NCBI RefSeq assembly: GCF_988242995.1
Contig: NZ_OZ547043.1
DNA length: 64,000 nucleotides
Strand: one strand, 5' to 3'
The position numbers and the translations under genes are program-made. A model generated the notes under the pieces. The model was not told where the DNA came from, searched no databases, and worked only from the letters and a program-made list of their open reading frames with translations. Below are positions 45,065-47,429 of this stretch, one piece after another (the first letter of the stretch is position 1; each line of letters starts with the position of its first letter).

Positions 45065-45090
45065 GCCTGATGCGGCGTATCAGGCCTACA
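45065..45090. repeat. REP palindrome
   Basis: gcctgatgcggcgtatcaggcctaca between dgcE and the alkA stop. Confidence 0.6.
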
Positions 45091-45943
45091 ATTCGTCCGT
45101 TCCGTCTGGTTGCCAGCCTTCCGTATACCAGATATGCAACAGCGCATAAGAACGCCAGGGCTTCCAGCGTTCGGCATAACGGCGGATTTGTGCCGGTGTC
45201 ATTCCCGGAAATCGCTGTTTAATCAGATAATCATCCGGCAGGAAAACATCTTTCGCCTGCCAGCCACGTAAGGCGAAATAATTCGCCGTCCAGCGCCCGA
45301 TACCCGGAAAAGTTTGCAGCGTTTTCATCGCTTGCTCTACGTCGCCCGGAATTGTCATTGGTAAGGTGCCCTCCAGCGCCGCATTTGCCAGATTAATCAG
45401 CGCCTCTGCCCGTTTCAACGGCATACCTAACGCTTTTAATGCCTGCGGGTCGGCTGCAGCCAGCCGCTGAGGCGTGGGGAAGCAGACATAATCCGGAAAA
45501 TCATCCAGCCGTTCGCCATAAAGCTGTGCCACTCTGGCGGTCAATTTTGCCGCCATCGCCACGCTCACCAGTTGGCCTAAAATCGCCCGCACGCCCTGCT
45601 CAAAAGCATCAACACTGCCGGGTAAACGCAATCCGGGCCGCGCCGCGCCTAACTTGCCCAACGCACCGTTAACAATCTGCGGGTTACATTGCAGATCAAA
45701 CAGGCGGCTCATTTTCGCCAGACACTCTGCGGCAACAGGTTCTAAACCTGCACTTAAATTTATGTGCAGAGTATGGCGGGCTATATCCGGAATAGCAGTC
45801 ACCACGCCGCGATATTCGCCCACCGCCAGACTACGGGCATAATAATCGTCAGCGACCGTTTCCACACCGTTCACCGCACGGGCGGCGAGAAATCCCAACA
45901 TCCACGACCAGTCATACGGCGGCTGCCAGTTCAGGGTATACAT
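45086..45943 (-). CDS. alkA: 3-methyladenine DNA glycosylase II
   Basis: 285 aa; MYTLNWQPPYDWSWMLGFLAARAV start. Confidence 0.9.
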   Translation of the reverse strand: MYTLNWQPPYDWSWMLGFLAARAVNGVETVADDYYARSLAVGEYRGVVTAIPDIARHTLHINLSAGLEPVAAECLAKMSRLFDLQCNPQIVNGALGKLGAARPGLRLPGSVDAFEQGVRAILGQLVSVAMAAKLTARVAQLYGERLDDFPDYVCFPTPQRLAAADPQALKALGMPLKRAEALINLANAALEGTLPMTIPGDVEQAMKTLQTFPGIGRWTANYFALRGWQAKDVFLPDDYLIKQRFPGMTPAQIRRYAERWKPWRSYALLHIWYTEGWQPDGTDEL

Positions 45944-45990
45944 CGCATCTCCTTGTTAATCCGCTTTCAGCATAAACGTTATTCAGACGT

Positions 45991-46005
45991 TACGCTTTGC
46001 TTTCA
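45991..46005 (-). promoter_or_regulatory. Candidate Ada box in the alkA promoter
   Basis: Minus-strand tgAAAgcAAAGCGta, about 50 bp upstream of the alkA start, resembles the Ada consensus AAAnnAAAGCGCA. Confidence 0.4.
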
Positions 46006-46076
46006 TATTCCGGTTGTCGCGACGGCAACATTTCGCTAAAGTCACGCCCCTTCTTCACCGGCATGGGGATTATTTC

Positions 46077-47429
46077 GTGTTTATTGGTTTTGATTACGGT
46101 ACAGCAAACTGTTCAGTGGCGGTCATGCGCGACGGTAAGCCGCAATTACTGAAAATGGAAAACGACAGCACGCTGCTGCCTTCAATGCTTTGCGCGCCAA
46201 CGCGTGAAGCGGTAAGCGAATGGCTGTACCGCCATCATGATGTTCCGGCAGACGACGATGAAACGCAGGCGCTGTTGCGTCGGGCGATTCGTTATAACCG
46301 CGAAGAAGATATCGATGTTACGGCGAAAAGCGTGCAGTTCGGTCTTTCCTCACTGGCACAGTACATTGATGATCCAGAAGAAGTGTGGTTTGTGAAATCA
46401 CCAAAATCGTTCCTCGGTGCCAGCGGCTTAAAACCGCAGCAGGTAGCGCTGTTTGAGGATCTGGTCTGCGCAATGATGTTGCACATTCGCCAGCAGGCGC
46501 AGGCACAGCTGCCAGAAGCGATTACTCAGGCGGTGATTGGTCGCCCTATCAACTTCCAGGGGCTTGGCGGCGATGAAGCAAACACCCAGGCGCAGGGGAT
46601 TCTGGAACGCGCGGCGAAGCGTGCCGGGTTTAAGGATGTGGTATTCCAGTACGAGCCGGTCGCGGCTGGGCTGGATTACGAAGCCACCTTGCAGGAAGAA
46701 AAACGGGTGCTGGTGGTGGATATCGGCGGTGGTACGACTGACTGTTCATTGCTGCTGATGGGGCCGCAGTGGCGTTCGCGTCTCGATCGTGAAGCCAGCC
46801 TGCTGGGTCACAGTGGTTGCCGTATTGGCGGTAACGATCTGGATATCGCGCTGGCGTTTAAAAACCTGATGCCGTTACTGGGCATGGGTGGCGAAACCGA
46901 AAAAGGCATCGCCCTGCCTATTCTGCCGTGGTGGAATGCGGTTGCCATCAACGACGTTCCTGCACAGAGTGATTTCTACAGTAGTGCCAACGGTCGTCTG
47001 CTTAACGACCTGGTACGCGATGCCCGCGAACCGGAAAAAGTGGCCCTGTTACAGAAAGTCTGGCGTCAGCGTTTAAGCTATCGCCTGGTACGTAGCGCAG
47101 AAGAGAGCAAAATTGCGCTTTCAAGCGTAGCGGAAACCCGCGCCTCACTGCCGTTTATCAGCGATGAACTGGCTACGCTGATTAGCCAGCAAGGGCTGGA
47201 AAGCGCCCTCAGCCAGCCACTGGCGCGGATTCTGGAACAGGTGCAACTGGCGCTGGATAACGCCCAGGAAAAACCGGATGTTATCTATCTGACCGGCGGT
47301 AGCGCCCGTTCACCGCTGATTAAAAAAGCGCTGACAGAACAGTTGCCGGGCATTCCGATTGCAGGTGGCGATGACTTTGGCTCCGTCACCGCCGGGCTCG
47401 CACGCTGGGCGGAAGTGGTGTTTCGTTAA
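46077..47429 (+). CDS. yegD: Hsp70/actin-fold ATPase YegD
   Basis: Conserved N-terminus FIGFDYGTANCSVAVMRDGKP begins at an in-frame GTG (46077), giving 450 aa; ORF track starts at 46014. Confidence 0.85.
   Translation: MFIGFDYGTANCSVAVMRDGKPQLLKMENDSTLLPSMLCAPTREAVSEWLYRHHDVPADDDETQALLRRAIRYNREEDIDVTAKSVQFGLSSLAQYIDDPEEVWFVKSPKSFLGASGLKPQQVALFEDLVCAMMLHIRQQAQAQLPEAITQAVIGRPINFQGLGGDEANTQAQGILERAAKRAGFKDVVFQYEPVAAGLDYEATLQEEKRVLVVDIGGGTTDCSLLLMGPQWRSRLDREASLLGHSGCRIGGNDLDIALAFKNLMPLLGMGGETEKGIALPILPWWNAVAINDVPAQSDFYSSANGRLLNDLVRDAREPEKVALLQKVWRQRLSYRLVRSAEESKIALSSVAETRASLPFISDELATLISQQGLESALSQPLARILEQVQLALDNAQEKPDVIYLTGGSARSPLIKKALTEQLPGIPIAGGDDFGSVTAGLARWAEVVFR

Follow-up and report, generated by a model that had tools for sequence, protein, structure and literature searches.

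The Ada-box-like sequence between alkA and yegD in an Escherichia coli genome is very probably the known Ada operator of the alkA promoter

The window, a stretch of 64,000 nucleotides from an Escherichia coli chromosome, contains the divergent genes alkA and yegD, which are separated by an intergenic gap of 133 nt. Gene names and coordinates were taken from the annotation of the record of E. coli O158:H23 strain CFIAFB20140388, which is 100% identical to the window over the 2.5 kb around the site; in this annotated genome, dgcE and yegI are the outer neighbours beyond alkA and yegD. The same 2.5 kb was matched in 5417 of 5426 complete E. coli genomes. The AlkA encoded here is 97% identical to that of K-12. 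Its gene has 285 codons (858 nt) here and in many other genomes, versus 282 codons (849 nt) in K-12 and some others; the C-terminal tail of AlkA is polymorphic in both length and sequence, and the proteins of the window and K-12 align over residues 1-280 only (window 45086..45094). The intergenic gap houses the 15-mer tgaaagcaaagcgta, which was read directly as the reverse complement of the window and is listed with the other features of the locus in Table 1. A preliminary description had pointed to this 15-mer as an Ada-box-like site on the minus strand of the alkA/yegD divergent region; the sequence is found there exactly, and the identity of both genes was confirmed by annotation and Pfam. 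No direct or inverted repeats were found in the alkA/yegD intergenic region, and an Rfam scan of 45850..46200 (E <= 1) returned no match.

Table 1. Features of the alkA/yegD region, in window coordinates.
Feature	Position	Strand	Basis or remark
alkA CDS, 3-methyladenine DNA glycosylase II, 285 aa	45086..45943	-	Annotation; Pfam AlkA_N and HhH-GPD
Shine-Dalgarno sequence of alkA, AAGGAG	45949..45954	-	Read directly; GGAG before the ATG kept across genera
Predicted alkA transcription start zone	45961..45965	-	5-9 nt after the putative -10
-10-like hexamer, TATGCT	45969..45974	-	TATGCT in 53/61, TAT-- in 60/61; putative -10
SNP, A here, G in K-12	45990	-	Spacer after the -35 slot
SNP, T here, C in K-12	45992	-	3' edge of the motif of the preliminary description; -35 slot
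15-mer of the preliminary description, tgaaagcaaagcgta	45991..46005	-	Shares the 3' nine core bases; reaches into the -35 slot
Putative -35 slot, AAGCGT	45992..45997	-	From geometry, assuming a 17-bp spacer; overlaps the B box at its final base
Phylogenetic footprint enclosing the Ada core, GGAATATGAAAGCAAAGCG	45993..46011	-	Mostly 1.5-2.0 bits per column
B box, GCAA	45997..46000	-	G, C and A each 56/56; last A 54/56
Ada recognition core, AATATGAAAGCAA (AAT-N6-GCAA)	45997..46009	-	Perfect pattern match; equals K-12
A box, AAT	46007..46009	-	Outside the interval of the preliminary description; 56/56 unique sequences
Probable yegD promoter, TTGTCG (46014..46019), 17 nt, TAAAGT (46037..46042)	46014..46042	+	From conserved hexamers at a fixed spacing
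yegD CDS, HSP70	46077..47429	+	Annotation; Pfam HSP70

The resemblance of this 15-mer to an Ada consensus holds for the old 13-mer AAAnnAAAGCGCA, which dates from the 1980s and has since been superseded (PMC6505713). Written as AAANNAAAGCGCA, this consensus is matched at 12 of 13 positions by AAAGCAAAGCGTA at 45991..46003 on the minus strand, and the GCGTA end of the match is polymorphic. According to reviews of the N-Ada/DNA structure (He et al. 2005), the Ada box was redefined as an A box, AAT, followed by 6 nt and a B box, GCAA; in these accounts, the A box is contacted by Ada residues R45 and R71, and the B box by F114, H115 and R118 (PMC4437013, PMC3788762). The ada, alkA and aidB promoters all carry a site of this kind (PMC4437013, PMC3788762). 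The literature entry for the Ada box of alkA is AATATGAAAGCAA, at a distance of 53 nt from the start of alkA (PMC6505713 Table 7); in the A box/B box register the site is 46009..45997. Here too, 53 nt lie between the last A of the B box (45997) and the alkA ATG (45943), and the core ends 54 nt upstream. Because the superseded consensus was used, the interval first proposed misses the A box and takes in bases that are not part of the recognition sequence: it covers the B box and shares 9 of the 13 core bases (45997..46005), and it overruns the core by 6 nt into the -35 region. With the ada promoter sequence AAATTAAAGCGCAA as the common reference, the old register is shifted downstream by 7 bp relative to the A box/B box register.

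The bare Ada motif, in its old or new consensus form, occurs in the window at chance frequency and proves nothing alone. With one mismatch allowed, AAANNAAAGCGCA has 2 matches in the 64 kb, versus 2.67 expected from shuffles, and AAT-N6-GCAA has 17, versus 18.4 expected on the same basis. The exact 11-mer AAAGCAAAGCG is rare in the window, with 1 match versus 0.11 expected. As both forms of the motif are at chance frequency, a claim of function must rest on context. Booth et al. reported that AAT-N6-GCAA is equally frequent upstream of non-induced genes (PMC6505713), which indicates that further determinants must exist. It is position, conservation and identity with the characterised site of K-12, rather than the motif match, that make the alkA site significant.

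In the 134 nt that precede the alkA ATG, the window differs from MG1655 at 4 positions, none of them in the Ada core, and the segment 46022..45993 (the core with 13 nt upstream and its 3' flank) is identical to that of MG1655. Two differences are the SNPs at 45992 and 45990; the other two, at 45958 and 45955, are near the Shine-Dalgarno sequence. The K-12 site has the gene, the orientation and the 53 nt to the ATG in common with the site described here, and its 19-nt footprint and -10-like TATGCT are also identical. The earlier statement that the site is consistent with Ada control of alkA is thus well founded, since the K-12 site of the literature is the same in core sequence and in distance to the alkA start. 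Haplotypes at 45992/45990 were counted as exact matches over 73 nt among complete E. coli genomes: T/G was found in 2174 records (40% of 5413), the K-12 haplotype C/G in 1504 (28%), and the T/A of the window in 965 (18%). These two positions are the sole common variants near the site in the sampled E. coli sequences. Of the 5411 E. coli genomes with the region, 5357 (99%) have an exact copy of the 30-mer 45993..46022, which contains the core. At the sequence level, the segment aligned to GCGCA is polymorphic in E. coli, while the A box/B box core is fixed. Both SNPs are common natural alleles located outside the recognition core and are therefore predicted to be without functional consequence and without effect on Ada binding.

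One E. coli strain, 23CRST001 (L068, NZ_AP045758.1), carries an IS4-family element, ISVsa5 (IS10-like), in its alkA promoter. The element is inserted 10 nt after the Ada B box, at the equivalent of window position ~45986/45987. Because it parts the Ada site from the -10 and alkA, it should uncouple alkA from Ada induction in this strain.

A scan of species-representative genomes with the AlkA protein yielded 61 loci (63-97% protein identity) from Escherichia, Citrobacter, Enterobacter, Klebsiella, Raoultella, Kosakonia, Phytobacter, Lelliottia, Pseudocitrobacter, Yokenella and others. In 56 of the 60 usable loci, representing >15 enterobacterial genera, AAT-N6-GCAA precedes the alkA ATG by 64-68 nt, whereas the form in the preliminary description, AAA..AAAGCG, was found in just 11 of the 60. 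Columns were counted over 56 unique sequences anchored on AAT-N6-GCAA. GGAAT, the A-run of the spacer and GCAA are each kept in 54-56 of the 56 sequences, and the 15 nt that follow the footprint fall to 0.04-0.9 bits per column, versus mostly 1.5-2.0 within it. In two loci (L024 and L046), the B box is GCAG instead of GCAA.

These counts bear on the possibility that the old register is the functional one, that is, that Ada reads AAA-nn-AAAGCG(C/T)A at 46003..45991, with the AAT further upstream present by coincidence. K-12 reads AAAGCAAAGCGCA and matches the old consensus at 13 of 13 positions, versus 12 of 13 in the window, and some conservation is seen at 45995 (G in 56/56), 45994 (C in 51/56) and 45991 (A in 42/56). 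Since the old consensus was presumably derived in part from the alkA promoter itself, however, a perfect match of K-12 to it would be circular. The positions that the old register alone explains are weak across genera: 45996 is A in 12 of 56 sequences and G in 44, which breaks AAAGCG; G is present at 45993 in 39 of them; and 45992 has C in 32 and T in 14, T also being the base there in at least 58% of complete E. coli genomes. The AAT at 46009..46007, which the A box/B box model alone explains, is present in 56 of 56. Older literature gives Ada-interacting fragments as AAAGCGCA for ada and AAAGCAA for alkA (PMC3788762), but the alkA element stops at the B box rather than at GCGCA. Judged from the alignment, the positions specific to the A box/B box register are perfectly conserved and those specific to the old register are not, and function in the old register is very unlikely. 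The A box/B box model gives no account of the fairly conserved bases 3' of the B box, 45995..45993 (GC(G/A)); their conservation may reflect contacts with sigma region 4 or extra Ada contacts.

The A box/B box core is also held at a fixed distance from a putative alkA promoter. GCAA is followed by a TATGCT-type hexamer after exactly 22 nt in 61 of 61 sequences, and the hexamer AAGCGT in the putative -35 slot bears a poor likeness to TTGACA. A sigma-70 consensus scan of both strands over 45800..46250 found no promoter, which is uninformative because an activator-dependent promoter is expected to escape such a scan. From this arrangement, we infer the -10 element, the transcription start and hence the position of the Ada core relative to it: if transcription starts ~7 nt after the hexamer (~45962), the core would extend from ~-47 to -35 with its centre near -41, which is probably the geometry of a class II activator. 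RNA polymerase and Ada have been reported to act at alkA in a way that differs from their action at ada and aidB; polymerase binds alkA weakly, and binding of its alpha subunit there requires Ada (PMC4437013). Two papers, Landini et al. 1997 and Landini & Busby 1999, have titles in agreement with this geometry, and that of the latter supports a distinct sigma-70 contact at alkA. A literature search for the exact sequence AAAGCAAA, or for a class II/41.5 placement at alkA, returned nothing pertinent. In two loci, the -10-like hexamer is separated from the alkA start codon by extra sequence, ~14 nt in L045 (Enterobacter sp. JUb54) and ~62 nt in L053 (Citrobacter amalonaticus S646); both retain the Ada core and the 22-nt spacing.

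On the other side of the core, the two hexamers of the probable yegD promoter agree with the consensus at 8 of 12 positions, which is under the threshold of the sigma-70 scan; both are conserved, and the distance between them is the same in 61 of 61 sequences. The linker between the Ada core and this yegD module measures 2 nt in most sequences (57), 3 nt in three others and 18 nt in Yokenella. Because the spacing from the Ada core to the alkA -10 is constant and the linker to yegD is variable, the Ada core belongs to the alkA promoter module. The core is 4 bp from the putative yegD -35, TTGTCG, and polymerase footprints at promoters placed back to back would overlap, so the conserved block might instead serve yegD as an upstream element or activator site, or Ada might modulate yegD through a shared site. 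This is highly improbable given that the 16-nt insertion in Yokenella splits the Ada core from the yegD block and leaves the alkA module undisturbed, that the MNNG tiling-array supplement and the main text of the MMS transcriptome paper make no mention of yegD, and that the literature assigns the site to alkA (PMC3788762, PMC4437013, PMC6505713). A functionless chance match has a negligible probability and is effectively refuted by the conservation data: although the window has no more matches to either consensus form than shuffles predict, the core is near-invariant in >15 genera beside a freely varying spacer, stands at a rigid distance from the -10, is 99% exact in E. coli, and is identical to the characterised K-12 site.

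The yegD leader has features of its own. A block of ~40 nt at 46030..46069, just upstream of the yegD GTG, is near-invariant in >15 genera (minus strand TCCCCATGCCgGTGAAGAAGGGGcGtGACTTTAGCGAAATG). Its conservation exceeds what a plain promoter would need; it holds the plausible -10 TAAAGT and a Shine-Dalgarno sequence, GGGGA, and is flanked by CCCC...GGGG. The predicted RNA fold of the leader 46046..46100 has a free energy of -9.9 kcal/mol (z = 0.41) and is no better than that of shuffled sequences. Modulation of the Hsp70-like YegD by Ada binding and polymerase recruitment at alkA, for which promoter occlusion would be the likeliest route, is unlikely; as a separate matter, it is also unlikely that 46030..46069 is an undescribed regulatory element. 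In the list of open reading frames, yegD starts 21 codons earlier, with a TTG at 46014. The annotated GTG at 46077 is preferable, since the 63 nt upstream of it show conservation of a non-coding type, with indels in other genera. A minus-strand open reading frame at 45990..46064 (MPVKKGRDFSEMLPSRQPEYESKA) crosses the yegD leader and the Ada site; it has 24 codons here and 35 in K-12, and the TAA stop that closes it at 45992..45990 is created by the two SNPs of the window. It is probably non-coding, because a 1-nt deletion breaks the frame in Enterobacter, Lelliottia and other genera; its conservation also has no codon periodicity.

The regulator itself is found in the genome identical to the window, where ada-alkB is located ~167 kb from the site. 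The Ada protein of this genome is identical to that of K-12 at 350 of 354 residues, has the expected Pfam domains, and retains its methyl-acceptor residues and those that contact DNA, C38, R45, C69, R71, F114, H115, R118 and C321; the ada promoter carries AATTAAAGCGCAA. With an intact ada that has its own Ada box, the system is complete in this strain. The literature on K-12 describes the induction of alkA by MNNG or MMS, with its dependence on Ada established via ada mutants and variants. The site in the window is therefore very probably the known Ada operator of the alkA promoter, and it probably works as a class II-type activator site near -41. In the mechanism that we propose, a change in Ada, a methylation-sensing protein, would remove a charge clash with the DNA backbone, and the N-terminal domain would then bind DNA sequence-specifically, recognising AAT (46009..46007) and GCAA (46000..45997) on the alkA-sense strand. 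The bound site would end at the -35 slot, 22 nt upstream of TATGCT. As the alkA promoter has no usable -35, bound Ada may take its place, as class II activators do, and would recruit RNA polymerase by contacting sigma-70 and the alpha C-terminal domain, two partners whose involvement is taken from the literature.

The same A box, 6-nt spacer, B box and regulator are found at the E. coli ada promoter, with AATTAAAGCGCAA as the Ada box. The Ada site of that promoter presumably lies further upstream (about -60 to -48) and acts by an alpha-CTD/UP-like mechanism. The base before GCAA is C at ada and A at alkA, a difference that has been linked to a ~10-fold lower affinity of Ada at alkA; both methylated and unmethylated Ada are able to stimulate alkA (PMC4437013). 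In Pseudomonas putida, alkA is likewise Ada-dependent and methylation-inducible and has an Ada box with an A/T-rich A box, ATT-N6-GCAA (PMC3788762), but the A box sequence and the distance to the -35/-10 differ from those in E. coli.

In sum, Ada control of alkA is already known, and nothing at the site is new. The site may serve as a calibration case, in that the motif is statistically unremarkable in 64 kb and yet very probably marks a real operator. Phylogenetic footprinting of the alkA promoter in enterobacteria brings out the A box/B box register defined by the structure rather than the older consensus, and the allele that gives K-12 its perfect match to the old 13-mer is in the minority in E. 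coli.
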